DNA of 59,609 nt. Origin: Methanotrichaceae archaeon. GTDB taxonomy: Archaea; Halobacteriota; Methanosarcinia; Methanotrichales; Methanotrichaceae. Location: the NCBI GenBank assembly GCA_963754945.1, contig CAVWIG010000042.1, forward strand, positions 1 to 59,609. Reading direction: 5' to 3'. Below the pieces are notes generated by a model. The model ran no database searches. It was not told the DNA's origin and worked only from the letters and a program-made list of their open reading frames with translations. This document shows, piece after piece, positions 1 through 51,129 of the stretch (positions within the stretch are counted from its first letter, which is position 1; every line of letters begins with the position of its first letter). A program made the position numbers and the translations under genes.

Positions 1-347
1 GCTGGCGCGACCATGAGAGTGTTCATGTGATCGGTCTGGACATGATATTTCAGTCAATCATAAAGGAGATACATAATCGCACACCTATTCCTGTAATCGC
101 GACACGCTTTCACAATACTATCGCTCGTATGATATCTTCTTTATGCCTGACCATCTCAAAAGAAACCGGGATTACTCAAGTAGCTTTGTCCGGCGGAGTT
201 TTTCAGAATCGACTGTTGCTTAGACAAGCGATGAAACTACTTAAAGCCGACGGACTTTCGGTAATTCTACACCGTCAGGTACCATGTAACGATGGTGGGA
301 TATCATTAGGACAAGCAGTGATCGGTGGAACGTTATCAGCGATATAA
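1..347 (+). CDS. hypF: Carbamoyltransferase HypF, C-terminal part (gene starts before the window)
   Basis: FHNT, VALSGGVFQN and VPCNDGGISLGQA motifs; frame is open from position 3. Confidence 0.93.
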   Translation, partial: WRDHESVHVIGLDMIFQSIIKEIHNRTPIPVIATRFHNTIARMISSLCLTISKETGITQVALSGGVFQNRLLLRQAMKLLKADGLSVILHRQVPCNDGGISLGQAVIGGTLSAI

Positions 348-415: not shown

Positions 416-634
416 ATGTGTCTTGCCGTACCAGCGTTGGTTGAGTCAATTGATGGGGGGGAAGCAGTTGTCAGCATCGAAGGAGTCAGGCGAGAGATAA
501 GCATTCAACTCACCCCAGAGGCTGAGGCAGGAGATTATGTGCTTCTACACGCCGGATTTGCCATTGGTATTCTTGATGAAACCGAAGCCCTCCAAACACT
601 TGAGCTGTTGAGGCAAGTTCTTGAAGTTCGTTGA
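416..634 (+). CDS. hypC: Hydrogenase maturation chaperone HypC/HupF
   Basis: N-terminal MCLAVP; GDYVLLHAGFAI; GGAGG RBS upstream. Confidence 0.96.
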   Translation: MCLAVPALVESIDGGEAVVSIEGVRREISIQLTPEAEAGDYVLLHAGFAIGILDETEALQTLELLRQVLEVR

Positions 635-1715
635 TGAGTTTCGTGACGCCGAACTGGCGAAACAAGTAATCGAGTATATTCACAACACTTCCCGCCGGCC
701 AACAAGGCTTATGGAGTTTTGCGGGGGTCATACTGTCAGCATAATAAAAAACGGTATTCGGCAGCTGCTACCCAAAAATATAGAGATGCTCTCCGGTCCA
801 GGATGCCCGGTATGTGTTACCTCGACCACGGATATTGATAAAGCAATAGCTTTGGCCGACCTTCCTGATGTGATCGTTACGAGCTTCGGAGACATGATAA
901 GAGTACCGGGAACTCAATCAACACTACAGATAGCAAAGGCAAAAGGGTCTGATATCAGGGTAGTATATTCAGTTCTCGACGCGCTTAGGATAGCTCGCGA
1001 AAATCCCAAGAAAAGAGTGGTTTTCATTGGTATTGGCTTTGAGACTACGGCTCCAACTGTCGCGGCCGCCCTTATACAGGCTGAAAGGGATAATATTCAA
1101 AATTTCTTTGTCCTGAGTTTACATAAAGTCTGTCCCCCAATCATGAAAGCCATCCTCGAACGCGGTGAAGTACGCTTGAATGGCATCATCTGTCCGGGGC
1201 ATGTAAGCGCTGTTATTGGCTCCCGGCCCTATGAATTCATTACGCATGACTATAATATCGCCTGCGTAGTATCCGGATTTGAACCTCTGGATATACTCCA
1301 GACCGTTGCAATGCTGGTCAATCAGATCGAAAAAGAAAATTACTCTGTTGAAATCGCCTACCGTCGCGGGGTAAAGGTCGATGGAAATCCGCAGGCTTTA
1401 AAGCTGATGGATCAGGTATTTGAGATCAGCGATACTGATTGGCGAGGTATCGGCATCGTGCCCGCTAGTGGATTAAGAATTAACCGGAATTACCAGCTGT
1501 TTGACGCAGCGACTAACTTCGACATCAAAATTTATCCAGCAAATGAACCTTCGGGATGTCAATGCGGCAGAATATTACGGGGTGTTTCAACTCCCGTGGA
1601 TTGTAGACTCTTCGGATTTTCCTGTACGCCTGAACACCCAATCGGTCCTTGTATGGTATCAACCGAGGGAACTTGTGCAGCGTATTACCAGTACGGAGAG
1701 AAAATTGAGCACTAA
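621..1715 (+). CDS. hypD: Hydrogenase formation protein HypD
   Basis: MEFCGGHT, GPGCPVCVT, GFETT, PGHVS, GPCMVSTEGTC motifs; TTG start overlaps hypC. Confidence 0.97.
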   Translation: MKFVDEFRDAELAKQVIEYIHNTSRRPTRLMEFCGGHTVSIIKNGIRQLLPKNIEMLSGPGCPVCVTSTTDIDKAIALADLPDVIVTSFGDMIRVPGTQSTLQIAKAKGSDIRVVYSVLDALRIARENPKKRVVFIGIGFETTAPTVAAALIQAERDNIQNFFVLSLHKVCPPIMKAILERGEVRLNGIICPGHVSAVIGSRPYEFITHDYNIACVVSGFEPLDILQTVAMLVNQIEKENYSVEIAYRRGVKVDGNPQALKLMDQVFEISDTDWRGIGIVPASGLRINRNYQLFDAATNFDIKIYPANEPSGCQCGRILRGVSTPVDCRLFGFSCTPEHPIGPCMVSTEGTCAAYYQYGEKIEH

Positions 1716-2718
1716 TTCCGAACGCATCCTTTTGGCTCATGGAAGCGGTGGTAAGCTTAGCCAGGAATTAGTCAACAAGATCATTGTTGACGTCATCGGT
1801 AATCCTATACTTACTCGAATGGATGACTCTGCGGTTATTGATCTACCTGGGAAGACCGCTTTCACGACTGATAGTTATGTTGTCAGCCCGATCTTTTTTC
1901 CTGGCGGAGATATTGGCCGACTGGCAATTTGCGGAACAGTGAACGATCTTGCTACTGCCGGGGCAACACCAGTTTATCTCAGTCTCTCTTTTATTATCGA
2001 GGAAGGGTTGTTGTTATCCGAATTCAAGCAAATCTTGAGGTCGATCAAGGAAACCGCAGAAGAAGCGGGAGTATTAATCGTAACCGGTGACACGAAGGTC
2101 GTTAATAAAAACGGTGCCGATAAACTATTTATCAATACCTCTGGTCTGGGCAAGATACCGGACGGGTTAAATATCTCCGGGCATAACGCCCGGATTGGGG
2201 ACAAGATAATTCTAAGTGGGACTATCGGAGATCATGGAATAGCTATTATGAGTAAGCGTGAAGGTCTCCAATTCGAAGCATCGGTTATCAGTGACTGCGC
2301 CCCATTAAATCACCTCGTTGCTCAGATCCTACAAGGTTCGCCTAATGTTCATTGCCTGCGGGACCCAACCCGGGGCGGGTTGGCAACGACCCTCAATGAA
2401 ATCGCTCAACAATCATCGGTTGGTATTGAAATAGAAGAGGCGACCATACCAGTCAGTAGAACCGTGCGCGGCGCATGTGAAATGCTTGGCCTGGACCCGT
2501 TATACATCGCTAATGAAGGCAAAATGGTAATTATTGTAGCTCCAGAAGACGCACCAACAGTGTTAGACGGGATACGGATGAATCGTTATGGCCAACAATC
2601 AGCGCTTATCGGTGAAGTAGTTGCAGGGCATCCTGGACGTGTGGTGATGAAAACCAATCTCGGAGCCTCGCGTTTTGTGGACGTTCCTATGGGTGAATTA
2701 TTACCAAGAATTTGTTAA
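1705..2718 (+). CDS. hypE: Hydrogenase maturation protein HypE
   Basis: LAHGSGG, FTTDSY, GTVNDL, RDPTRGG and C-terminal LPRIC; probable TTG start at 1705 after GGAGAG. Confidence 0.96.
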   Translation: MSTNSERILLAHGSGGKLSQELVNKIIVDVIGNPILTRMDDSAVIDLPGKTAFTTDSYVVSPIFFPGGDIGRLAICGTVNDLATAGATPVYLSLSFIIEEGLLLSEFKQILRSIKETAEEAGVLIVTGDTKVVNKNGADKLFINTSGLGKIPDGLNISGHNARIGDKIILSGTIGDHGIAIMSKREGLQFEASVISDCAPLNHLVAQILQGSPNVHCLRDPTRGGLATTLNEIAQQSSVGIEIEEATIPVSRTVRGACEMLGLDPLYIANEGKMVIIVAPEDAPTVLDGIRMNRYGQQSALIGEVVAGHPGRVVMKTNLGASRFVDVPMGELLPRIC

Positions 2719-2863
2719 ACATAGTTTTGGCAAGAAAAAATGAAAGCGGTCTTGGCCGGCATCGAAGTGAGTGCTTTGTACCGGGCGGAAGATGAATTAA
2801 AGGCGATAATGTTGAAATATTATCAAATCCAACAGATGTATATAAGGTCAAAGATGTCCAGGC

Positions 2864-3070
2864 CTCTTCAAGGGGTTCCGCGGTTCGCCGCCGACGGATA
2901 ACGGAGCCGTTCAGGACCTTCTGCTCAGACTTTCTGCCATGGTTGAAGGCATACCGCAAATAGCGGAATTGGGCTTCGACACAATAAAAGTCATGCCTGA
3001 AGGCAACGGTTACCGGATTGTAGACGCCAGAATCATGCTCAGGCTAAATAATGGGGAGGTAATGAAATGA
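2864..3070 (+). pseudogene. C-terminal ATP-grasp remnant of an ADP-forming acyl-CoA synthetase / Pat-type protein
   Basis: Manual translation LFKGFRGSPPTDNGAVQDLLLRLSAMVEGIPQIAELGFDTIKVMPEGNGYRIVDARIML aligns by eye with LLKGYRGPTADVPALRDLLVKLSDLVMENPEIKEMDLNPVFVYPQGYKVVDARII in the 25525-27597 protein. Confidence 0.75.
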
Positions 3071-4041
3071 AACCAATAAATCTTATTTGGCTGCACGGAC
3101 AGAGTTGCGGCGGGGATACTGTATCTCTAATCGGGGCGGGTGAGCCTTCACTAATCGACGTGCTGACCGGCGTGCTCCCTGAAGTAGGCGATATTAAACT
3201 TGCATTTCATCCCATGATTATGGCGTCGTGGGGAGAAAGAGCAATGGGCGTTCTGGCTGACGCTCGGGAAGGTAAGCTGGACCCTTATCTCCTTATTTTT
3301 GAGGGCTCTATTCCTGATGAAGAGCAGGCGTCCCGGCAGGGAGGATTCTTCTGCTCGGTTGGTGACAGAGCAGGCAAGCTGGTCACCGCCAACGAGTTAC
3401 TACTCGAACTAAAGGGTAGAGCAGCTGCTACTGTAGCAGTAGGTACCTGTGCTGCCTTTGGCGGCATTGTTGCCGGGAAGCCCAATCCCACTGGGGCTAA
3501 AGGACTAATGGATTTCCTGGGGAAGAACTACCGGAGTGCTCTTGGCCTCCCAGTGATAAACGTGTCTGGCTGTCCCGCTTCGGGAGATAATTACATCAAA
3601 GCTCTGGCTTATATTGCGTTAATGGCCAGAGGTGTCGTTACAGTGCCGCCGGAGCTTGATGAGCACAACCGGCTCACGTTTCTTCATGGAGAGCTAGCCC
3701 ACCATATTTGCCCCCGCGGTGGTTACTTCGCGGTCGGAAAATATTCGTATCAGTTCGGTGATCCTTATTGCATGGTATGGCTCGGCTGCAAGGGACCTAT
3801 CAGTTATTGTCAGGTGCCACGAGATAAGTTTGCCGGGCACTTCGGCGGCTGTACCACGGTTGGGTCTCCATGTATAGGCTGCACGGAACCGGGTTTTCCT
3901 GATGAGCCCTTTTCTCCATTCTTTGAAATGGCTCCAGCGAAATCTCTGGCAACAGGCACCACTCCAGGAAGTCCGCACCAAATAAAAGAATGCGCCACTG
4001 CCCAGGAGCATCTGTTCCATTTAATTTCAAGGAGGATATAA
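3067..4041 (+). CDS. [NiFe]-hydrogenase small subunit, no TAT signal, group 1h-like
   Basis: SCGGD, GTCAAFGG, GCP, HHICPR, YCMVWLGCKGP, GGCTTVGSPCIGCTEPGFPD Fe-S ligand motifs; no RRxFxK leader. Confidence 0.95.
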   Translation: MKPINLIWLHGQSCGGDTVSLIGAGEPSLIDVLTGVLPEVGDIKLAFHPMIMASWGERAMGVLADAREGKLDPYLLIFEGSIPDEEQASRQGGFFCSVGDRAGKLVTANELLLELKGRAAATVAVGTCAAFGGIVAGKPNPTGAKGLMDFLGKNYRSALGLPVINVSGCPASGDNYIKALAYIALMARGVVTVPPELDEHNRLTFLHGELAHHICPRGGYFAVGKYSYQFGDPYCMVWLGCKGPISYCQVPRDKFAGHFGGCTTVGSPCIGCTEPGFPDEPFSPFFEMAPAKSLATGTTPGSPHQIKECATAQEHLFHLISRRI

Positions 4042-4046
4042 CTGCT

Positions 4047-5792
4047 ATGGTCACGCAGAAAGTTGAGGTTGACATTGAGCCTTTAACCCGGATAGAAGGA
4101 CACCTTGGCATTCATGCCGAGGCTGACATGGAGCAAAGAAAATACGTGGATGCCTATTGCTACGCCACCATGTTCCGGGGAATTGAAGTTATCCTCAAGG
4201 ATCGTGAACCGGCAGACGCTATCTGGCTCACACAGCGGGTGTGCGGCGTCTGCCCGACCCCTCATGGCACAGCATCCGCACTCGCTGTTGACATGTGCTA
4301 CCAGGCACCGCCACCACCCTTTGCCGTTGCTATAAGAAATATGATCGAGCTATCCGAAGAAGTGTACGACGGTGCGTTGGGGTGCGGAATACTGGAAGGC
4401 CCTGATTATTCCGAGGTTATCATGTCCAGGCTCAATCCCGATATTATGGCGCAGGCTAACAGGACCAAGTCTCCCAGGGTTGACTCCCATGGGTACGAGA
4501 CTATAGGGGACATTATGCGCGGTTTGAACCCCATTACAGGAAGCCTGTGGCGGAAATGCCTCAACGGTTCAAAGGTAGGTATAGAGATGGCCTCTTTGAT
4601 GGGCGGCAAGCATCCTCACGTTCAGACCCTGATACCGGGAGGAGTGGCTAAGACAACAAATGTTAAGGATTTGGAGACCTTCTATGCTCTGGTAGCACGC
4701 GAGATAGCCTTTACCAAAGAACTGGTCTGTGTATTTGACGATTTGCTGGACTTCTGCTCAGCAGTCGGACTCGATAAAACCGGGGTAACATCTCCCAATC
4801 TTCTGAGTCATGGGATGTACGACGACCCGTTTGCCTACGATGCGGAATATGGTCATATGTCTGCCTGGGGTGAAAAAAGGGCTTTAACACCTGGTATAGT
4901 TCTCGATGGCAAGCTGATAACCACCGACCTGGTAGAAATACAGGTAGGAACTAATGAGTTCGTTACTCATTCCTATTACGAGGAGACGCCAGCAGCGGAG
5001 ATAGAAAACGATCCACTGGGCAACAAGTTGAGCAAAGACCACCCCTGGAACGAGGAAAGCCCGGCTAGGCCTGGGAAAGAAAAGGACTGGCAAAACAAAT
5101 ATAGCTGGGCGAAGAGTCCACGCTGGCAGGATTGGAAGCGTAGGATAGATGGCCAGACCTACGCGCTTGAGGCGGGGCCTCTGGCGCGGATGTGGGTTGC
5201 GGCCCTTGCCAGGAAAGTCCCCGAGGCTACCGGTACTTCATTCAAATTTACCCTACCTGCTGGCGCGGTCGAAGGATTCCGGGTGCCGCAGGAGCTTACA
5301 CTGGAATGGAAAATACCGAAGACCATCAATGCCCTAGAGCGTATAAGAGCGCGAGCCTACTTCCATGCGTTTTCAGCGTATCTTGCCTATCACACCTTTA
5401 CTCAGGCTATGGACCTTATCAACAAAGGGCAGGCAAATACATGGACTCGCTATACCAAACCTGAAGATGGGATAGGTGTCGGTATGACCGAGGCTATGAG
5501 AGGTGCCCTGGCACACTGGTGCGTTATGCGTAATGGGAAAATTCACCGTTATCAGATAATAACACCAACTGCCTGGAACTGCGGTCCCCGCGACCAGCAG
5601 GGTCGGCTTGGACCTTATGAGAATGCGATTATAGGAACTCCCATTACCGAAAATCCATCCGATGGTAAACTCGATGGCATCGACGTGGTTCGGACCGTGA
5701 GGAGCTTTGACCCATGTCTGGCGTGCTGTGTGGGTGTTTACACGCCTGATGGTCAAATTATCGCTACTAAAGACCTAGAACACATTCACTAA
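4047..5792 (+). CDS. [NiFe]-hydrogenase large subunit
   Basis: TRIEGH, L1 QRVCGVCPTPH, EAMRG, PTAWN, L2 SFDPCLACCVG plus C-terminal extension; ATG at 4047 follows AAGGAGG. Confidence 0.97.
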   Translation: MVTQKVEVDIEPLTRIEGHLGIHAEADMEQRKYVDAYCYATMFRGIEVILKDREPADAIWLTQRVCGVCPTPHGTASALAVDMCYQAPPPPFAVAIRNMIELSEEVYDGALGCGILEGPDYSEVIMSRLNPDIMAQANRTKSPRVDSHGYETIGDIMRGLNPITGSLWRKCLNGSKVGIEMASLMGGKHPHVQTLIPGGVAKTTNVKDLETFYALVAREIAFTKELVCVFDDLLDFCSAVGLDKTGVTSPNLLSHGMYDDPFAYDAEYGHMSAWGEKRALTPGIVLDGKLITTDLVEIQVGTNEFVTHSYYEETPAAEIENDPLGNKLSKDHPWNEESPARPGKEKDWQNKYSWAKSPRWQDWKRRIDGQTYALEAGPLARMWVAALARKVPEATGTSFKFTLPAGAVEGFRVPQELTLEWKIPKTINALERIRARAYFHAFSAYLAYHTFTQAMDLINKGQANTWTRYTKPEDGIGVGMTEAMRGALAHWCVMRNGKIHRYQIITPTAWNCGPRDQQGRLGPYENAIIGTPITENPSDGKLDGIDVVRTVRSFDPCLACCVGVYTPDGQIIATKDLEHIH

Positions 5793-5805: not shown

Positions 5806-6288
5806 TTGGAACCAAAGACCCTGATATGTGGATTCGGCAACAGCCTGAGAAGAGATGACGGGCTGGGAGCATACGTCATTGACCAACTGGCGGAACGGGA
5901 GCTGCCGGATTACATTACCTTGAGAGATTTCGGTACTTCAGGTTTTCGAGCCGCCCTTGAGATTGGCAATTATGACAGGGCTATTGTAATAGATGCTATC
6001 AGGGCGGGGGGAAAGCCGGGTACTCTGTATCGGATGGTTCTTGGCTACGAAAATATGGTCAGTAACAATCTACCCGGTTCCTTCGTGATCAGCCTGCATG
6101 AAGTCGGACTCGAGAAAGCTCTGGCAACGGCTTTCTTCACTGGCCGCTTTCCTAACGAAGTAGTTATTCTGGGTTGTGAACCTGAGGATGTCTCATTTGG
6201 TTTAACACCATCAAAAATAGTTACGGGGGCAGTAAAGCGGCTCCTGGAACTTGTTGTCAGTGAAATTGAGGAGAGAAAACATACCTAA
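5806..6288 (+). CDS. Hydrogenase maturation endopeptidase (HyaD/HycI family)
   Basis: GFGNSLRRDDGLG, IDAI, SLHE motifs; directly after the large subunit. Confidence 0.93.
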   Translation: MEPKTLICGFGNSLRRDDGLGAYVIDQLAERELPDYITLRDFGTSGFRAALEIGNYDRAIVIDAIRAGGKPGTLYRMVLGYENMVSNNLPGSFVISLHEVGLEKALATAFFTGRFPNEVVILGCEPEDVSFGLTPSKIVTGAVKRLLELVVSEIEERKHT

Positions 6289-6326
6289 AAGTCAATATTT
6301 AATCCCAATAACCCAAGGGACATCTT

Positions 6327-7024
6327 ATGGATACAGAAGCATTACATGATATCGGGTACGGTATGTATGTTATTGGTTCTAAGGAGGATAGCAAATTTGA
6401 TGCTCTTGTTGCTAACGCAGTATTTCAAATAACAAATAACCTCTAAGCCGCCGACCATTGCCATTAGCATTACCAAGAGTAACATCAGCTATGAGTTCAT
6501 CAAAGGGAGTAAGATATTTACCGTGTCCATTCTCAGCCAGGATGCGCCCCTTTCTTTTATCGGGCAGCTCGGTTTTAAATCGGGCAGGGACACTGATAAG
6601 CTTAAAAGCATCCATTACAGGACAGGTCAGACCGGAGCTCCAATTATTACCGATTACGTCGTCTCTTATCTTGAAGCGTGGGTTCTTAATGAAATTGATA
6701 TCAGTAATCATGCCATCTTCATCGGTGAAGTAGTGAATGCTGAGGTTCTCAGCAACAAAACGCCTTTGACCTATGCCTACTATTACCGGGAGAAACGTGG
6801 CACCACTCCTGAGACAGCGCCCAGCTACGTGGCAGAAAAGAAAGAGAAGGTTACCGGTGCTGCAAAATATAGATGTGTTGTGTGTGGCTACACATATGAC
6901 CTGGCATACGGCGATAACAGAAAGCGGCGTAAAGCCCAGGACACCTTTTGAGAAGCTGCCCGATAGCTGGGTATGTCCCATTTGCGGGGTGGGGAAGGAT
7001 CAATTCGAAAAGGTAGCAGAGTGA
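6327..7024 (+). pseudogene. Flavin reductase-rubredoxin fusion (high-molecular-weight rubredoxin-like), two frameshifts
   Basis: MDTEALHDIGYGMYVIGS start; 7-bp duplication (AAATAAC x2, ~6427-6440) breaks the frame; FGFKSGRD-like LGFKSGRD motif; CVVCGYTYD...WVCPICG split by a second frameshift near 6915. Confidence 0.85.
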
Positions 7025-7294
7025 AGCCGTAGTTCTCCTGTATAGCTTTAACATCCTACAAAAAGTAAAAATTAGAGGAAAATATGGATAAATATGTATG
7101 CCTGATATGCGGATGGATATACGACCCTACAAATGGCTGACCCCGATGGCGATATTAAACCCGGTATACCTTTTGAGAAGCTGCCCGATAGCTGGGTATG
7201 TCCCATTTGTGGGGTGGGGAAGGATCAATTCGAAAAGGTAGCAGAGTAAAGCCGTAGTCTCCTGTATAGCTTTACATCCGACAAAGTAAAAATT
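6943..7294 (+). repeat. ~130-bp near-identical direct repeat (6943-~7075 and 7168-~7294)
   Basis: ACCTTTTGAGAAGCTGCCCGATAGCTGGGTATGTCCCATTTG...GTAAAAATT occurs twice, covering the rubredoxin 3' half and downstream DNA. Confidence 0.92.
7084..7249 (+). pseudogene. Rubredoxin, one-base frameshift
   Basis: [18 protein letters not shown] / [36 protein letters not shown] with an extra base at ~7137. Confidence 0.88.
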
Positions 7295-7726: not shown

Positions 7727-7888
7727 ATAGAGAAGTACATCTGTACAGTTTGTGGATACATTTACGATCCCGAGAAGGGAGATGTAGACTCTGGTATCAA
7801 TCCAGGGATGGCATTTGAAGATCTTCCCGATGATTGGTTCTGCCCACAGTGTGGAGCGCCCAAAACGAATTTTGAGAAGCTGAAATGA
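7727..7888 (+). CDS. Rubredoxin (53 aa; ATA in the start-codon position)
   Basis: [52 protein letters not shown]; GGTGA SD-like motif upstream; not in the ORF track. Confidence 0.85.
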
Positions 7889-7908: not shown

Positions 7909-8135
7909 ATGAGTCTAATTAGGGTCATAAAACCTGGGGTTCAGTGGATAGGAGCAATTGATTGGGACCGCAGGCTCTTCGATGCACTTATACCTCTGCC
8001 AAATGGGACAAGCTACAATTCTTATCTGATCAAGGGCAGCGAGAAGACGGCATTGATAGATGCTGTCGATATCTCTATGCTCGGTGTACTGTTGGGAAAC
8101 TTGAAGGCATTGGACATCAGGAAAATTGACTATAT
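7909..8135 (+). pseudogene. fprA: Flavodiiron protein (FprA family), N-terminal fragment truncated by IS66
   Basis: WIGAIDWDRRLFDALIPLPNGTSYNSYLIKGSEKTALID...KIDY ends at the IS terminus. Confidence 0.88.
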
Positions 8136-9557
8136 GTATGTGTTTAGCTGGTTAGCTTTGCCGTTAGCATTTGGAGACAATCCAGATCTTTCTGTCCCCA
8201 GGTTGCCAGCACCGTCATGATTCGCTCGTGAATCGATGTCCCTTTTTCATTGCGCAGCGTGCCCAAGATCTTTCTCAAAACGACATGGGGTCGCAGCGCT
8301 CTCTCTGCTCTATTATTGGTCGGCTCTACGCCCGGATTAATGATAAACGTGAACAAGTAATTGAATCCGTTTCTAATTTTACTGATGAATTTTTGGATTA
8401 TTTCGAGCGGATACTCTTTCATGATCCATTGTTTTAGCGCTTCTCGTGCCAAATGCCATAAATTCGCTCGGATTTCTGGTGGAGGATCACTTTCCAGAGC
8501 TTTAGTCACTGATTCATAAAGTGCTTTGAGCGCTTCATGCAACGGAATCGCTTCCTCGAACTTCTCCGCAAGGTCTTTCGATTCTCGAAGTAGATGGGCC
8601 CAACATCGTTGCAAGCGATTTGTGAATTTAGCATAAGGTTTCCACCCATCGCATACGATTATTCCCTTAAATCTCCGCGTCAGAACTTCCGTCAGAACCT
8701 TCATGCCTCGGCTCTTTCGAATCACGAAAAATGTCTCCGATTGTGTGGTAAATGTCCAGATCCAGTGTTTTTCTCCCTGGACGTGGATTGACGTTTCGTC
8801 TACGTAGAGGATCGGAGCGTCTCGAATTTTGTTTAAAATCGCATCGTATTCAGATCTAACGGCATCAGCAGCGCGCCGGGTTAAATCAAGTATCGTAGCA
8901 GGACTTATATTCAGACCATGCAATCGCTTTAGAGTGACTTGGATCTTTCTATGAGGCAACCTATCCTCATATTTTAGTAGTGTCGTCTGGGCAATTGTGT
9001 TGTTTCCGAATATGCCTCACTTGGGCAACCTGGATCGTTTGCAGCAACTTCTTTCTGACAGTATGGACACCTGTAATGCGCAATTTTGTATTCAATGACG
9101 GTGATAGGTTGTGGCTCAGGAATTTCCTCGATAATCTTCGACTCTATTCTGAATGGATCACCAAGCACTGTTCCGCAATCGGGACAAAGATCTGCGGTGA
9201 CTTCAACTTGCTTATCGGGCTTGGCTGGAGGTCTCGTTACGCCTTTATGCCCAATTTTCTGGCCGGGCGTTCCATTGCTATCTTTATTCTGATCTTTTTT
9301 GCGATTGAGACCACGTTTCAGACTTGGTGGAGTATGTGCATTCTTATATTTGGCTAATCGGGCTTCGAGTTCCCTTATACGTTCCTTAAGCAACTCATTC
9401 TCGAGTTTCAATTGTTCAATCAAGTCTAGAAGCTGCTTTATGGTTTCGTCTTTGTCCATATTCCCTGTGAAAGATTATCGACATTATATTATATAATTTT
9501 TCTGGTCGAATGGATTCTAGGTCGATCCACCTGAATTGACCAGGGCTAAACACATAC
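8136..9557 (-). mobile_element. IS66-family insertion sequence (single-transposase, ISBst12-like); transposase 8144-9459 frameshifted near 9014
   Basis: 13-bp terminal inverted repeats GTATGTGTTTAGC / GCTAAACACATAC; VDET, QRCWAHLLR, TNNRAERALR motifs; N-terminal coiled coil and CPDC..CPYC. Confidence 0.92.
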
Positions 9558-10009
9558 AAAAAATGTTATGAAACGATTGCATTAGGTAGCACTCTTTCAT
9601 GGACTGGTTCGGCTGCAGAGCAGGGGAAGCTCTCTGCTTGGATCACGCCACCCGTGAATATCGAAGAGAGCGTAGAGCCACGAGGTTGAGGCCGGGAAGC
9701 TGAAGGCTGAGACTCTAGGGTTACGCAACCCTTCTTAACTACTATCGAACCGGAGCTGCAAGCTTGGCCAGCCTTCAAGCCCATCACTCCGACTTTTGCC
9801 TCCTCCTCATGGCTGGCGTTCTTAATATTATTACATTGATAAAGGAGTTGATAAGGCTGTCCATAAGCGGAAGTTATGAGATCAAGACTGGCTGAGGATC
9901 TTAGAGTATTAGCGGAGAATGTATATGGATTCCAGACGATTACATAGAGGCAGCAGAGAGGATGGCTAAAGCTTCTGAGAGAACCAAGAAGGCTGGGAAG
10001 TGAGGATAA

Positions 10010-10420
10010 ATGCAGAAAAATGAACAAACAGCGGATGAGAGTGAAGTAGCTTCCATGAAGAAAGATATCAATGATGCTTTGGGAGCAGACTATTACGATT
10101 GCATGCAGGCACTTGACAGCAGGTTTACCGAGCTAAGGTTAGGCACTCCTGAGCGGGAAAACTATGCGCTCATGCAGGATGCTATAGTCAGGTTGCAGGA
10201 GGAGATACGGGATAGCAATGACCTGGAGTACACGGACGGTGACTACGAGGAAGTGACCAAGGAGTTCTATGAAGAGCTGCTCGATGAGGAGGCAGGTATA
10301 GATCTGCGTGGCCGGGCGGTCATTGACTTCGTGATCAATAGGCTGAAAGGCATCCTCGAAGGCATTGAGAAAGAAAAGAGTGAAAAAGAGAAGGACGAGG
10401 TGGAGGAAGAGAGCGGATGA
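10010..10420 (+). CDS. Acidic hypothetical protein
   Basis: 136-aa ORF with GAGGA upstream; no recognisable motif. Confidence 0.6.
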   Translation: MQKNEQTADESEVASMKKDINDALGADYYDCMQALDSRFTELRLGTPERENYALMQDAIVRLQEEIRDSNDLEYTDGDYEEVTKEFYEELLDEEAGIDLRGRAVIDFVINRLKGILEGIEKEKSEKEKDEVEEESG

Positions 10421-16539: not shown

Positions 16540-18813
16540 TCAGGAAATCAAGACCTCCTCAACAAGTCTCCTGGGGGTATGTTTGGCTGGCTCAGCATAC
16601 CCCATGCGAATAAGTATTTGGGGATATTTTACGTTCAATATCTCTGCTATCTCCTGCCTGAGTTCTGGGATACCTATTGGTTGGCTGAAAAGGTCGAACA
16701 TGACATTCAACCTAGTCGCGGTCAGAAACAGAATCTCAAATAGAACCCCTGTCTTGATCCAGGTCAATTTATCATCGCTTTCAGTGGATAACACGGCTAC
16801 AACAGGAGAAGCTTTCATGAAGGAGGTCTCTATTCTGGCCCTGGACGAGGACATATCAAAGGTCCCAAATATAAATGAACCAAAGAGGATTTCTATTTAC
16901 TAACAGATTTCTTCGAAATGAGTAGTTTTCGCCGAAATTCATACCTTTTTTGCTTTGAAGACATCGATTCTCCTTGAATTACACTCTTTTTCGATCATTT
17001 TTCGACAGCTTCCGCTCGGCCTAGATGACTTTGGCATTTTTCAGTGTGCAGAGTTGATATAAGTTGAAAGCAAATGCCGCCACCATCATCTTAGTGTGAA
17101 CCCTCTGAACAGTTGTAACCAGCACTCTACCAGAATCGAACACTCTTTTAATAACTGCGTGAGGCCGTTCGCCTGGTGCTCTGAGCTTGCTGATCAATCG
17201 ATTTCTCTCCTTATCGAGCTCACCTAGAGGCTTATCGGTGGTCCTGCGTTTCATTGTGAAATCCACGCCCTTAGCCTCCGCCCCAAAGTATCCTCTATCT
17301 CTGAGCACCACTTCATTCTCGACAGATAGATCAACCTGACTATCATGCAGCGATGCCGTGGTAGTCTCGATTTCGCGTATCAGACCATAATCGATATCGC
17401 TTTTCTGATGGAGCTTATAGCCGAAATGTGTTTCATTTCCTTTCTTAGCCCATGTGCCATCTTTACTGCGACGAGTTCTGGCCTCGTTGCCGCGTGGCTT
17501 CTTGGAAGAACCAGGATCAGCTTCAATGAATGTAGCATCTTGAATCGTTCCCATGATGACAACTAATCCCATAGCAACAAGCTGTCTTTGAAGTTCCGCC
17601 CAAACAATCTTGTTCTTCCCGGTTTTTTCCATGCGATCTCTGAATAACCATATTGTGCTGGAATCGGGGAATGGCTCAGGATACCCAAGAAATTCCATGA
17701 ACGATAGGCGATCTGCTATCTGTCTTTCTGCTTCAAGATCACTCAAGCCAAACCACTGCTGAAGAATTAGAATCTTGAACATGAGAATAACGTCGCTGTT
17801 CGGCCTTCCCCCTTTCTCACTCTTGTTATTGTACATTTCATCGAGATGACCGCGAATCGGAACCCAATCGATCTTATCCGATATCTCCAATAGCCTATTT
17901 CCAGTCTTGTTGTTCTTCTTTTTGACTTGTTGCAACGCCCAGATGATAAAAGAATTCATAATATCTACTAGTATTGTTATTATATAAACATTTCGATAGT
18001 TATAGAATAAATGGTAAGTTCATTGGAACCCTCTGAATGGTAGGTTTATAAGAGTCCTCCAAAGAAGGATGCGAAATCTGAATAGCCAAAAGCGTATCCT
18101 GGAAGCCCGTCCTTGGCATCGGAGGTATTCGGCCTCACCCAAGATGCCAGCTCCTTCCGAAAGGCTTTGTTTCCAAGCTGTATCCTGTGAGCTCTGCTCA
18201 GGATGTCGGCCATCTTGTTCTTACCTTCATTGTTCGTTATTATGTCCAACCTGAAACCTTCTTTATTAACGCAATACCTTAAGGTCTCGAGCTTCTCGTC
18301 CTCGATAGCTTTCTCCTCATATCTCTTCCTATTTGTGTGGCGTTTTGTTATTTCCTGGAAAAGATCGGGAAACCTAGGTTCTGTGGCTCTGTCAGAGAAT
18401 TGCACAACGGCTGTCCTATCCCCGGATATGCCGTCAGGCAGACAATTCACGTCATATCCAAAGCCGAAATGCTCAGCTCCTAATAGAATATTGGCAAGGA
18501 GACACCCATGGCTTATGTATAGCGTCCTATTGTTGGGATCAACATTTGGCAGGGACCTGGCGAGGTCGGCGATTAAAGATACCTCATTGCCTTTGACGGA
18601 TAACTTCCAGGGCTGGGTGTTAGGCCCGGATGGGGCTAGAACACCGTACCTTAAAAGAAACTTCAATTGATCGAATAAGGTTCCTTTAGTAGGAAAATCT
18701 GATTCTTGAACATCCCAAGCCGCTAATTTACCGCTCACTTTGAACCATCCCATCGTAACGAACAAATATGAATAACCATCCATACCTTTAAATCTTTTCA
18801 AATGATACAGCAT
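16540..18813 (-). pseudogene. Acg-type double nitroreductase domain protein split by IS5
   Basis: LAPSGPNTQPW and RHTNR in the 5' part; the frame rejoins as ...DFASF|FGSFIFGTFDMS... across the IS; ends PQILIRMGYA...TPRR. Confidence 0.88.
16885..18059 (-). mobile_element. IS5-family element with intact transposase (17021-17959)
   Basis: Imperfect 16-bp TIRs GAGGATTTCTATTTAC / GTTTATAAGAGTCCTC; 4-bp TSD CAAA; QDAT, GYKLH, DRGY, R.PGER motifs. Confidence 0.93.
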
Positions 18814-49182: not shown

Positions 49183-51129
49183 ATGAACAAAGTCACTATC
49201 GGTCTGATTCAGACATCCGTCACGGAGAACACCAACCTTAACCTGCATAGAGCTTTGGCTAAAGCCAAAGAAGCGATTGCCAAAGGGGCGCAGATAATAT
49301 GTCTCCAGGAGTTGTACAGGACGATATATTTCCCTCAAGCGGAGCGCACCGACGCGACGTGCTTTGCTGAGACTATCCCGGGAGAATCGACCGATGCCTT
49401 CGCGGTCCTCGCCAAAAAATACGGCGTAGTGATCGTTGTTCCCTTGTTTGAAAAAGATGATAAAGGCAGTTACTACAACTCCGTAGCAGTCATCGATGCT
49501 GGTGGAAGGCTGTTGCCCACCTACCGTAAAGTGCATATCCCGCACGATCCCCTGTTTTATGAGAAGAATTACTTCAAAGACGGCCTGGATTTCCAGGTCT
49601 ACGACACACGCTATGCCCGCCTGTCCGTTCTCATCTGCTACGACCAGTGGTTCCCTGAAGCAGCCAGGATCGTTGCTCTAAAAGGCGCAGATATCATATT
49701 CTACCCCACGGCCATCGGCTGGATCAAGGGAGAAGGGATGCCGCCCGAAGGAGACTGGCACGATGCCTGGGAGACTGTTCAGCGGGGACACGCCATAGCT
49801 AACGGAGTCCACGTTGCTTCAGTGAACAGAGTAGGCCCGGAGGGAGACCTGATCTTCTGGGGCAGTTCCTTTGTCTGTGACTCCTTTGGACAGGTCATCA
49901 AGCGGGCAAGCGACAAGGACGAAGAGGTCTTGGTCGTGGAGATCGACCTGGACAAGAACAGTGAGGTCCAGGAGGGTTGGGGCTTTCTCAGGAACAGGCG
50001 GCCTGAGACCTATGGCTCGCTGATTGAGGCAAAAAGGCCAGAGCATTGTCAAGCCGCAACGGACCAACTCAATCTGGCCAGTCGGCTATGCCTTCGAGGA
50101 ACTCCCCTGAGGCTCGGCTACCATATGCCTGCCGAGTGGGAGCGGCATGATGCCATCTGGCTCTCCTGGCCATACGATCTGGACAGCTTCCCGGAGATCG
50201 ATCGAGTGGAGAAGGCCTATATTTCCTTAATTAAGGCTATCCACAATAGTGAGACTGTCAACTTGTTGGTCACCAACGAGAAGATGATGACAAAAGTTGT
50301 ATATCTTCTCAAGAATGCTGGAATAAATCTGCAACTTCTCCGGCTACACCAGATCGACTATGCCGACGTTTGGTTCAGGGACTATGGCCCTACCTTCGTT
50401 GTCAACCGGGCCAGTAATAAGCTGGCAATGGTTGCTTGGATCTTCAACGCTTGGGGCGAAAAGTACACGTTGCTGATGAAAGACTCCAGAATACCGTGTC
50501 TGATAAATGAGGAGCTGAAGCTGGAATGTTTCCAGCCCGGCATAGTTCTCGAAGGCGGATCAATCGACGTCAACGGCCAAGGGACTGTCTTGACTACAGA
50601 GCAGTGCCTACTGAACAGGAACAGAAACCCACAGCTTTCGAGAGTAGAGATCGAAAGCTACCTCCATGAGTACCTGGGCACAAACAAGGTCATCTGGCTG
50701 AAAGAGGGCATCGCCGGTGACGATACCGACGGCCACGTAGACGACGTGGCCAGGTTTGTGGGACCTAACACTGTTTTATGCGCATACGAGGAGGACGATG
50801 CGGATGAAAATTACGGAGCACTCAAGGAGAACTACGAGATCCTCTGCGCCTCTTCGGATCAGGATGGAAATGAACTTCGGGTGATCAAGCTCCCCATGCC
50901 CGGCTTTGTGGGCGATGATGAACGCCTGCCCGCCAGCTACGCCAACTTCTATATCGGTAACAGCGTTGTTCTAGTGCCCAATTTCGGCCATAAAAACGAC
51001 CAGAGAGCGATGAGGATAATTCAAGAGGCGATCCCTGAGAGAAGAGTGGTTGGGATAAATTGCAGGGAGCTGGTGTATGGCCTCGGAACCATCCACTGCA
51101 TAAGTCAGCAACAACCAGCTCTTAGGTAG
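49183..51129 (+). CDS. N-carbamoylputrescine amidase (AguB)-agmatine deiminase (AguA) fusion
   Basis: CN-hydrolase QEL, YRKVHIP, ICYDQWFPE; deiminase MPAEWE, WFRDYGP, EGGSID, DTDGHVD, GTIHCISQQ. Confidence 0.93.
   Translation: MNKVTIGLIQTSVTENTNLNLHRALAKAKEAIAKGAQIICLQELYRTIYFPQAERTDATCFAETIPGESTDAFAVLAKKYGVVIVVPLFEKDDKGSYYNSVAVIDAGGRLLPTYRKVHIPHDPLFYEKNYFKDGLDFQVYDTRYARLSVLICYDQWFPEAARIVALKGADIIFYPTAIGWIKGEGMPPEGDWHDAWETVQRGHAIANGVHVASVNRVGPEGDLIFWGSSFVCDSFGQVIKRASDKDEEVLVVEIDLDKNSEVQEGWGFLRNRRPETYGSLIEAKRPEHCQAATDQLNLASRLCLRGTPLRLGYHMPAEWERHDAIWLSWPYDLDSFPEIDRVEKAYISLIKAIHNSETVNLLVTNEKMMTKVVYLLKNAGINLQLLRLHQIDYADVWFRDYGPTFVVNRASNKLAMVAWIFNAWGEKYTLLMKDSRIPCLINEELKLECFQPGIVLEGGSIDVNGQGTVLTTEQCLLNRNRNPQLSRVEIESYLHEYLGTNKVIWLKEGIAGDDTDGHVDDVARFVGPNTVLCAYEEDDADENYGALKENYEILCASSDQDGNELRVIKLPMPGFVGDDERLPASYANFYIGNSVVLVPNFGHKNDQRAMRIIQEAIPERRVVGINCRELVYGLGTIHCISQQQPALR

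Follow-up and report, generated by a model that had tools for sequence, protein, structure and literature searches.

A putative cytosolic [NiFe] hydrogenase of an unnamed group 1 clade in a horizontally acquired operon of a Methanotrichaceae methanogen

Methanotrichaceae possess no Frh, Mvh, Ech or Vho, and M. thermoacetophila showed no detectable hydrogenase activity, according to the pertinent passages of two papers (PMC10470525, PMC10598746). A 59,609-nt contig from a metagenome-assembled genome (MAG) of a Methanotrichaceae archaeon (CAVWIG010000042.1, assembly GCA_963754945.1), the whole of which is referred to here as the window, begins with a co-oriented block of genes covering its first 6.3 kb and comprising the end of hypF, hypC, hypD, hypE, a 350-nt leader, the genes for a hydrogenase small subunit (SSU) and large subunit (LSU) and a gene for a maturation endopeptidase. 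The locus raises the question of what kind of hydrogenase is encoded there, how it came to reside in such a host and which acceptor would take its electrons. Our analysis makes it very probable, as judged from the sequences, that this block is an operon that looks functional, was gained by horizontal transfer and encodes a cytosolic heterodimeric [NiFe] hydrogenase belonging to an unnamed clade of group 1.

Subunit architecture and position within group 1

The SSU gene (3067..4041, + strand; 324 aa) matched PF01058 and PF14720 and had HofK as its best match in the Protein Data Bank (PDB; 5aa5_A, E 3.8e-61), and the LSU gene (4047..5792, +; 581 aa) matched PF00374 with 267.7 bits. The LSU most likely starts at 4047 and not at 3990, given an ATG 8 nt after a GGAGG and the same start in relatives, and the two subunit genes are adjacent with no genes between them. 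A HycI/HyaD-type maturation endopeptidase is encoded immediately downstream (5806..6288, +; TIGR00072, 116.7 bits, cut-off 47.5). Upstream on the same strand lie the 3' end of hypF (3..347; Pfam HypF_C_2, E 3e-31), a gene within which the contig begins and which is full-length in the sister islands of genomes G002 and G079, followed by hypC (416..634; Pfam HupF_HypC, E 6e-26), hypD (621..1715; TIGR00075, 476 bits, cut-off 193) and hypE (1720..2718). The start of hypE is approximate, the frame being open from 1501 and the TIGR02124 match (463 bits) aligning from residue 75 of a 405-aa frame.

An earlier note on this DNA, made from its letters, had described a hydrogenase with a group 1h-like scaffold and non-canonical motifs, and all of the motifs that it quoted were present in the SSU and LSU translations. 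The SSU starts MKPINLIWLHGQSCGGD and contains GGCTTVGSPCIGC; it has no twin-arginine translocation (TAT) leader and no anchor helix. Its proximal-cluster CxxD aligns with GCDGD of HofK, its medial-cluster Cys (GGC) coincides with the additional Cys that the all-[4Fe-4S] NiFeSe enzyme has and its distal cluster is H-x-x-C, the ligands for three Fe-S clusters aligning with the HofK and NiFeSe small subunits. All 18 family SSUs lacked a TAT leader, possessed the fourth medial Cys and ended in a conserved basic, amphipathic-looking tail. The Asp-containing proximal motif, which the earlier note gave together with the medial Cys as a trait known from group 1h, is present here but is not family-wide, as 9/18 SSUs had CxxD and 9/18 had CxxC.

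The LSU translation contained L0 TRIEGH, L1 QRVCGVCPTPH, HGYETIGDIMRGLNP and L2 DPCLACCVG, in agreement with the previous reading. Both Cys pairs of [NiFe] groups 1/2, the N-terminal RxCGxC and the C-terminal DPCxxC, were found (RVCGVCPTPH, DPCLACC), as were the maturation endopeptidase and the C-terminal tail of these groups; the tail of 18 residues follows DPCLACCVG, ends in EHIH and would be cleaved. The terminal His (or Arg) of DPCxxCxxH is replaced by Gly, since E. coli Hyd-2 DPCMACAVH aligns with DPCLACCVG. Among solved structures the LSU scored 437 bits against 5aa5 (E 9e-130) and no more than 181 bits against all others, and an AlphaFold2 (AF2) model of the LSU built with 32 sequences (pLDDT 90.4, pTM 0.92) superposed on 5aa5 with TM 0.93/0.96 and 1.6 A at 39% identity, compared with a TM of 0.73 for the next-best structure. 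The proposed 1h-like scaffold holds because 5aa5 was far ahead for both subunits and because of this superposition.

Phylogenetic analysis by maximum likelihood (66 sequences, quick search, LG+G4, SH-aLRT support only) recovered 32 family members as one clade (SH-aLRT 100), sister to a four-member Nitrososphaerota/Thermoproteota MAG clade (NITR) with the same L1 motif (94), while 1h and 1l joined elsewhere (96) and 1g-like sequences (CGVCGASH) formed a third branch. The references in this tree were few and were assigned by motif and organism, not by HydDB accession, which counts against the firmness of the placement. When the LSU was searched against 1.84 billion cluster representatives, the family formed a single 50% cluster at 781 bits and the next clusters matched at 520 bits (same motifs), 463 bits (1l motifs) and 428 bits (1h motifs). 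RxCGVC(P/S)xxH was carried by 119 of the 121 best homologues. The clade includes sequences from Altarchaeum (L006) and Bathyarchaeia (L003 and L008), and the closest named LSU relatives outside the Methanothrix-type subclade, to which the window copy belongs, are bacterial MAG proteins (Planctomycetota 69% and Dehalococcoidia 60–62% identity). We are confident in defining an unnamed group 1 clade by L0 RIEGH, L1 RxCGVCPxPH and a C-terminal tail, and in placing it beside, not inside, 1h/1l. Two SSUs of the sister clade (L011 6782-7993; L012 6778-7980) carry a twin-arginine leader and a C-terminal membrane helix, and these enzymes, with the same CGVCPxPH L1 and 43–45% identity, would be an exported version of the lineage.

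The likeness to group 1h is considerable. HofKG, the 'actinobacterial-type' enzyme of Ralstonia eutropha/Cupriavidus necator (5aa5), is the best solved relative of both subunits and has the same fold, and the window enzyme shares with 1h the lack of a TAT leader, the proximal C-x-x-D, a fourth medial Cys implying three [4Fe-4S] clusters, adjacent subunit genes and the lack of a cytochrome b. The combination by which 1h is recognized, a cytosolic SSU with an Asp-ligated proximal cluster and an all-[4Fe-4S] chain, is therefore found in this enzyme. However, identity between the window enzyme and 1h references is only 39–43%, L0 is RIVG(S/N)L in 1h and RIEGH here, L1 is CGICGDNH in place of CGVCPTPH, L2 is LPCGVH in place of LACCVG, and 1h hosts are aerobic soil bacteria whereas the hosts here are anaerobes. 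The 1h motifs cited in the earlier note were verified in 5aa5, in Pseudonocardia L091 and in P0126, the P. asaccharolytica LSU having RIVG, RICGICGDNH and DPCLPCGVH at 43% identity to the window LSU. Membership of 1h was rejected on the L0, L1 and L2 motifs and on a tree position outside the 1h+1l clade.

Three further subgroups were also rejected. Groups 1l (Hyl) and 1m belong to the same 1h-like supergroup and resemble the window LSU in length, in the C-terminal tail and at 40–41% identity, but R(V/I)AGAL and RACGVCGGVH are the motifs of both, with DPCMPCTTH in 1l. Acidobacteriota and Caldilineaceae sequences had RVAG, RACGVCGGVH and DPCMPCTTH, as do the 1l sequences in the supplement of Leung et al. 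2024. Against 1l stand the absence of RACGVCGGVH/DPCMPCTTH (references L013-L016, P0125) and the adjacency of the subunit genes, between which 1l has five small membrane-protein genes according to the description of that group in PMC9561532. Group 1m (Hhm; Ray et al. 2022) has TRIAGAL/RACGVCGGVH, is from Actinobacteriota and, in the same account, has CooC, BirA, TPR and DUF1059 neighbours that are lacking here; a search of 12 of the 14 supplement files of that paper gave 0 occurrences of the string CGVCP. Group 1g, the Isp type of Crenarchaeota, was set aside on the absence of genes between SSU and LSU, the lack of a TAT leader and the separate branch of 1g-like sequences, 1g being described in the relevant part of PMC11018855 as an exported enzyme with isp1/isp2 between its subunit genes. 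The outcome that would have undone the earlier idea of a distinct enzyme, placement inside a described subgroup, was thus not obtained for 1h, 1l, 1m or 1g.

The clade itself has been sighted before. In Leung et al. 2024 (Nat Commun, PMC11018855) its archaeal members are listed as 'previously undescribed' group 1 lineages, and Table S2 and the Fig. 3 tree of that paper contain LSUs of Altarchaeum, IMC4/WOR-SM1, Bathyarchaeia TCS64 and Korarchaeia QMVU01 with RIEGH and CGVCP(T/V/L)PH, whose closest HydDB entries are given as 1l or 1h at 40.6–42.7%. The two sets were matched by shared motifs and lineages, comparison with the PMC11018855 sequences being by reading and not by alignment, and our family likewise has an Altarchaeum locus (L006) and P0090, named Altiarchaeales WOR_SM1 by one source. 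By contrast, the parts of PMC11018855 that treat these lineages give archaea only, with no clade name, motif analysis, context or function, and do not mention the variable L2 residue, bacterial members, transfer into Methanothrix or a rubredoxin link; its table has 0 Methanothrix or Methanotrichales entries. Passages of two Korarchaeia papers call the clade enzyme 'group 1h' or '1h/5' from HydDB and draw aerobic or F420-linked inferences. Our literature searches on Methanothrix hydrogenase, rubredoxin and oxygen, covering titles and the openings of abstracts, returned no paper on such an island or on a Methanothrix hydrogenase, and a Chloroflexi preprint held nothing on the clade. The suggestion of a possible new subgroup accordingly stands as regards a separate clade with its own motifs outside 1h (SH-aLRT 100), but not as regards novelty.

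The L2 glycine, the host and the spread of the island

The non-His residue of L2 and the extra Cys, to which the earlier note had drawn attention as departures from the canonical motif, are both present, but they are common variants within the family. At the position after DPCxxCxx, the 121 best homologues (53–92% identity) had His in 58, Gln in 56, Gly in 3, Ala in 1 and Arg in 1, with the motif missing in 2. The corresponding counts for about 117–118 full-length family proteins were Q56/H56/G3/A1/R1, with at least 7 changes of state on the family tree, and in a limited set of 21 further sequences from group 1 the residue was His in 19 and Gln in 2. A Cys directly after the second ligand Cys is a common family state. 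Every Methanothrix-type copy whose sequence extends to the C-terminus carries Gly (window, G002, G079, G090, metagenome contig L097, P0004 and P0005), including P0004 at 92% and P0005 at 83% identity, while tail residues near it vary; the substitution is neither degenerate nor private to the window.

The remainder of the LSU appears constrained. It differs from the family at 4 of 187 columns conserved at ≥93%, and all four differences are conservative (L235V, T357S, P359A and S413A in the numbering of a 600-aa frame). The Glu of ..RGIE.., which we take to be the partner Mg ligand of the C-terminal His, was invariant in 27/27 family sequences. The 18-aa tail had a pLDDT below 50 in the AF2 model, as expected of a removable peptide, and a protease gene adjoins here and in 7 of the first 8 family loci scanned. 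Theodoratou et al. are reported to have found in 2000 that the protease tolerates changes at the cleavage site. The canonical rule, as worded in PMC5299533, is that cleavage occurs after the conserved His of DPCXXCXXH. Read from these sequences, Gly is fixed and tolerated in the Methanothrix-type subclade, and the terminal His is free to vary in the family (H, Q, G, A, R). Dehalococcoidia-type LSUs (P0028-P0052, loci L001 and L099) were also observed to have C-terminal tails of about 40–60 residues that are rich in His (HxH repeats); such tails may recruit nickel, which is of interest as HypA/HypB were not found in Methanothrix carriers.

In keeping with a host from the Methanothrix family, the window genome contains mcrA and FpoD, and PAN, PAC2, ADP-forming ACS and an AMP-phosphorylase-like gene are archaeal genes on the contig. 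The genome has just two true [NiFe] LSUs, that of the window and another at the end of contig C26; other PF00374 matches were rejected as hydrogenases and correspond to FpoD. The C26 copy (C26:1-5713, locus L089) consists of a second hypD, hypE, SSU and LSU at 98–99% nucleotide identity, cut by the contig end, and may represent a paralogue, a pseudogene or another strain binned with this one.

The enzyme was carried by 4 of 105 species-level family genomes, belonging to three genera. Recent horizontal transfer is indicated because the LSU is 95–96% identical among carriers of the three genera while the housekeeping ADP-forming ACS of the window contig is only 75–76% identical to those of the same carriers; the same-genus genomes G010 and G011, with ACS 94–96% identical to that of the window, lack the hydrogenase. 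The shared island, hypFCDE-SSU-LSU-protease, measures about 8.3–8.6 kb with 93–97% nucleotide identity, and its flanks differ. In G079 it sits between genes whose homologues are neighbours on contig C17 of the window genome, an empty site, and in G002 it lies within a 234-kb contig. At the ends of the G079 island, a repeat search turned up nothing convincing in the way of att-like sites or of terminal repeats, direct or inverted, nor was there any sign of an integrase. Near-identical DNA was found in freshwater, freshwater-sediment and marsh metagenomes, with 27–29 of 30 bins covered. With bacterial MAG proteins as its nearest named relatives beyond the subclade, the island may have had a bacterial donor. 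At the flank of the G002 island (L086 3330-10334), a KAP-family NTPase and a CHAT/NB-ARC/TPR STAND protein were observed, an arrangement resembling a defence island.

The same bacterial relatives (Planctomycetota 69%, Dehalococcoidia 60–62%), together with a MAG that is 87.7% complete with 3.2% contamination, could alternatively be interpreted as a binning or assembly artefact in which the hydrogenase contig derives from a co-occurring bacterium. We regard this as very improbable, as the 59.6-kb contig itself holds archaeal genes and an ACS close to those of the same-genus genomes, and as the island also sits on the large G002 contig and, in G079, between genes with homologues adjacent on C17.

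Pairwise dN/dS values against the window copy ranged from 0.10 to 0.61 in 16/16 gene-by-copy comparisons: 0.10–0.19 for the LSU, 0.18–0.61 for the SSU, 0.26–0.32 for hypD, 0.13–0.23 for hypE and 0.31–0.45 for the endopeptidase. A TAG stop noted for the G079 LSU falls within 19 codons 5' of the real start and is outside the gene. In addition, one small sediment metatranscriptome (share 0.06) yielded four contigs on parts of the SSU and LSU at about 94–95% identity, which is a weak hint of expression.

Several observations weigh against an enzyme that is fully functional in this host. Values of 0.3–0.6 for some genes are looser than those of typical core enzymes, the C26 SSU is frameshifted by a one-base insertion after nt 215, and the metatranscriptome contigs may reflect DNA carry-over and do not amount to proof of transcription. 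HypA was not found and HypB was not above the cut-off in the four carriers, namely the window genome (G000, 87.7% complete), G002, G079 and G090, and maturation may be inefficient without them. Frameshifts in the C26 SSU and in the island rubredoxin genes described below, the IS66 and other insertion sequence (IS) elements that adjoin the island, the absence of HypA/HypB and the small number of carriers would all suit decaying cargo, an island recently acquired and now being lost, whose enzyme is not expressed or matured and whose Gly is tolerated drift. Such decay seems improbable to us, given that the window has open frames for SSU, LSU, protease, hypC, hypD and hypE, that dN/dS is well below 1 in every comparison and only four of the conserved LSU columns have changed, that Gly is kept down to 83% identity while tail residues vary, and that contigs from an RNA library match both subunits.

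Rubredoxin genes and candidate electron acceptors

The earlier note had found no cytochrome b, anchor or diaphorase gene adjacent to the hydrogenase and had left its electron acceptor without a candidate. The first part was borne out, but the protease gene is followed by genes of rubredoxin type. These had been overlooked, as had the horizontal transfer and the fact that the host is a methanogen, and the more surprising facts of this locus are its host, its recent spread across genera and its link to rubredoxin. An intact 54-residue rubredoxin is encoded about 100 nt after the protease in 3/3 sister copies with undisrupted 3' ends (G079, G090 and L097), scoring 97–102 bits with NF045768 against a cut-off of 90 (G079 97.4, G090 101.7). 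The G079 and G090 proteins have the two CxxCG/CPxCG knuckles of a rubredoxin. A degenerate second rubredoxin copy follows the intact one in sister islands, and in G002 only the last rubredoxin codons are left, beside a DUF4277 gene.

In the window, the protease gene is followed on the + strand by a flavin-reductase-rubredoxin fusion resembling 'high-molecular-weight rubredoxin' (6327..7024), which is spread over three frames by two frameshifts, with Pfam Flavin_Reduct and the N-terminal part of Rubredoxin in 6523-6951 and the C-terminal part of Rubredoxin in 6773-7024. The island rubredoxin gene (7084..7249, +) is split by one frameshift near 7137, its 54-aa orthologues in G079, G090 and L097 being intact. 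A third rubredoxin, of host type (7727..7885, +; NF045768, 96.4 bits, cut-off 90), is a paralogue of the rubredoxin on contig C28, where the host has a pair of rubredoxin and flavodiiron protein (FDP) genes. It is followed by the N-terminal ~78 residues of an FDP of the rubredoxin:oxygen oxidoreductase/FprA type (7909..8142, +), for which a phmmer search against the PDB gave 1e5d (D. gigas rubredoxin:oxygen oxidoreductase) as the best match (E 6e-10), along with 1ycf and 6frm, and which is 84% identical to the full gene on C28. Contigs of two other metagenomes, X1 and X3, are one base shorter at 7137, or contigs skip 6405-7034 and 6275-7071; intact or shorter versions of the rubredoxin region thus exist in other metagenomes, and those may be other strains.

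Known rubredoxin-dependent chains of O2/NO reduction (D. gigas 1e5d, methanogen FprA, and Moorella FprA with its high-molecular-weight rubredoxin) draw on NAD(P)H or F420H2 as reductant. The window resembles them in having rubredoxins, the fusion and an FDP N-terminus, but those chains are not known to include a [NiFe] hydrogenase encoded in a unit with rubredoxin, and several of the window genes are broken. With these neighbours, the best overall explanation in our view, at about even odds of being right, is a cytosolic H2-uptake enzyme that would feed rubredoxin and reductases of O2 and reactive oxygen species (ROS). That rubredoxin serves as the electron acceptor in the Methanothrix-type island falls slightly short of an even chance, and the mechanism taken as a whole is put forward with the same reserve. 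HypCDEF would assemble the Fe(CN)2CO centre, Ni would be inserted without HypA/HypB, and the adjacent protease would trim the disordered 18-residue tail next to Gly563. The direction of catalysis that we infer is H2 oxidation, because of the group 1 architecture and the lack of a link to NAD(P), F420 or ion-pumping modules; it would take place in the cytoplasm, with the Glu of RIEGH as a proton relay. Electrons would pass along three [4Fe-4S] clusters, of which the proximal one would be Cys3Asp-ligated as in the O2-insensitive R. eutropha enzyme, and the hydrogenase may itself be O2-tolerant. From there they would reach the rubredoxin encoded downstream and then flavodiiron, rubrerythrin or superoxide reductase (SOR)-type enzymes, so that the island would serve a strict anaerobe as a module for defence against O2/ROS, fuelled by H2.

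Much of what weighs against rubredoxin as the acceptor comes from the window itself and from relatives. Both island rubredoxin genes of the window are frameshifted and its FDP is cut by IS66, so that the proposed electron chain is broken there unless the indels are assembly errors. As 24 other loci of the family and of NITR lack rubredoxin, it is not the general partner of the family. The scan of 20 family loci showed maturation genes only in most of them, but a UbiA prenyltransferase lay within ~6 kb in 6/20 (L002, L003, L007, L100, L107 and L108), a UbiE-type methyltransferase was present in L002, L100 and L108, and two Bathyarchaeia loci (L007 and L107) had a divergent NarI-like and HdrD-like pair. 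In the Bathyarchaeia-type locus L110 (565-5836), a Psr/Phs-like trio, consisting of a molybdopterin oxidoreductase, a four-cluster ferredoxin subunit and an NrfD-type membrane subunit, immediately precedes the hydrogenase genes in the same orientation.

Enzymes of group 1h are known to pass electrons to the quinone pool with no cytochrome b involved. The quinone-related neighbours in Bathyarchaeia and Korarchaeia-type loci (UbiA, UbiE, NarI/HdrD-like, PsrABC-like) fit better than rubredoxin with an enzyme that docks at the membrane from the cytosol and reduces methanophenazine (quinone in relatives), from which electrons would pass to HdrDE and CoM-S-S-CoB, the rubredoxins being unrelated neighbours. 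The basic, amphipathic-looking tail of the family SSUs suits such docking, Methanotrichaceae are stated to have Fpo and HdrDE in the passages on their energy metabolism (PMC10470525, PMC10598746), and the window genome has a NarI/HdrE-like match. On the other hand, none of the five Methanothrix-type islands contains a membrane- or quinone-related gene, rubredoxin is the only redox carrier gene in them, the SSU is without an anchor helix, and the loci that favour a membrane acceptor are few, several being near-identical copies, so that neighbour counts overstate their independence. We consider this route possible but rather unlikely; at that same low likelihood, some Methanothrix strains would be capable of H2-dependent heterodisulfide reduction.

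The position of the rubredoxin gene allows another interpretation. In operons of O2-tolerant group 1d hydrogenases, HoxR (R. eutropha) and HupI (Rhizobium) are encoded behind the protease and play a maturation or protection role, and the layout of the island, with a rubredoxin-type gene directly after the maturation protease of a hydrogenase operon, matches theirs. The island protein could accordingly be a factor guarding Fe-S assembly of the SSU under O2 and not an acceptor. It is, however, a minimal 54-aa canonical rubredoxin scoring above the NCBI equivalog cut-off (97–102 against 90 bits), the hydrogenase is not of group 1d, and the flavin-reductase-rubredoxin fusion and FDP fragment alongside are electron-transfer partners and not assembly factors, for which reasons we find a maturation role improbable. 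Rubredoxin as an acceptor leading to O2/ROS reductases remains the reading that we prefer for the Methanothrix-type island.

Flanking features and implications for Methanothrix

An AT-rich element of about 80 nt that ends in TATATAAGG was identified by repeat search and alignment upstream of the SSU gene in the window (2790..2870, +), and likewise in G079 and G002. In G079 the element also precedes hypF (locus L087, 3131-3210 and 8317-8396, 73% identical), and it is possibly a common promoter or operator for both halves of the island. Downstream, the region ends in an IS66-family transposase in two frames (8144..9459, –; NF033517, 233 and 34 bits). The last 27 residues of the open reading frame (ORF) 7909-8220 recur at 100% on contigs C19 and C18 (27 residues) and C3 (26 residues), with copies 71–88% identical on C15 and C13; this recurring stretch (window 8140-8220) is presumably the IS end, the IS66 element being multicopy in the genome. 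A second transposase (DUF772 and a DDE domain) was observed at 17021-17959 (–), and with IS66 and this DUF772/DDE transposase the first 20 kb of the contig are rich in mobile elements.

No Pfam or NCBIfam matches were obtained for ORFs 6412-6981(–), 9566-10027(–), 10010-10420(+) and 2687-2959(–), the first of which lies opposite the rubredoxin-fusion frames and is probably not a gene, and a tRNA scan of the window found none. Farther along, a 648-aa frame (49183-51129, +) combines carbon-nitrogen hydrolase and Porphyromonas-type peptidyl-arginine/agmatine deiminase domains and would unite both steps from agmatine to putrescine.

The Asp-ligated proximal cluster and all-[4Fe-4S] chain, 1h-type traits regarded as 'O2-protection', occur here in anaerobes, which bears on whether they originated for O2 tolerance or for redox tuning. 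HydDB-based surveys label the clade 'group 1h', implying aerobic trace-gas scavenging in anaerobes, and this label is misleading. Although the C-terminal His is treated as a fixed residue of the cleavage and metal sites, Gln or Gly can take its place in enzymes that seem fully constrained in other respects, and the role of this His is directly testable.

Methanothrix (Methanosaeta) is a major biological source of methane, and PMC10470525 and PMC10598746 describe it as lacking hydrogenase genes and activity. A hydrogenase island that is mobile and under selection in some of its lineages would alter the view of its H2 and O2 ecology. The most far-reaching version, which we regard as unlikely and offer as speculation, is a mobile H2-powered O2/ROS cassette of a 1h-like, O2-insensitive hydrogenase, rubredoxin, flavin-reductase-rubredoxin and flavodiiron protein that is spreading among wetland and sediment methanogens of the Methanothrix family, combined with a dispensable C-terminal His. 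If this were true, a new C-terminal carboxylate or water would fill the Mg site in place of that His, and the cassette would let otherwise hydrogenase-free acetoclastic methanogens burn trace H2 against O2 and be active in periodically oxic soils.

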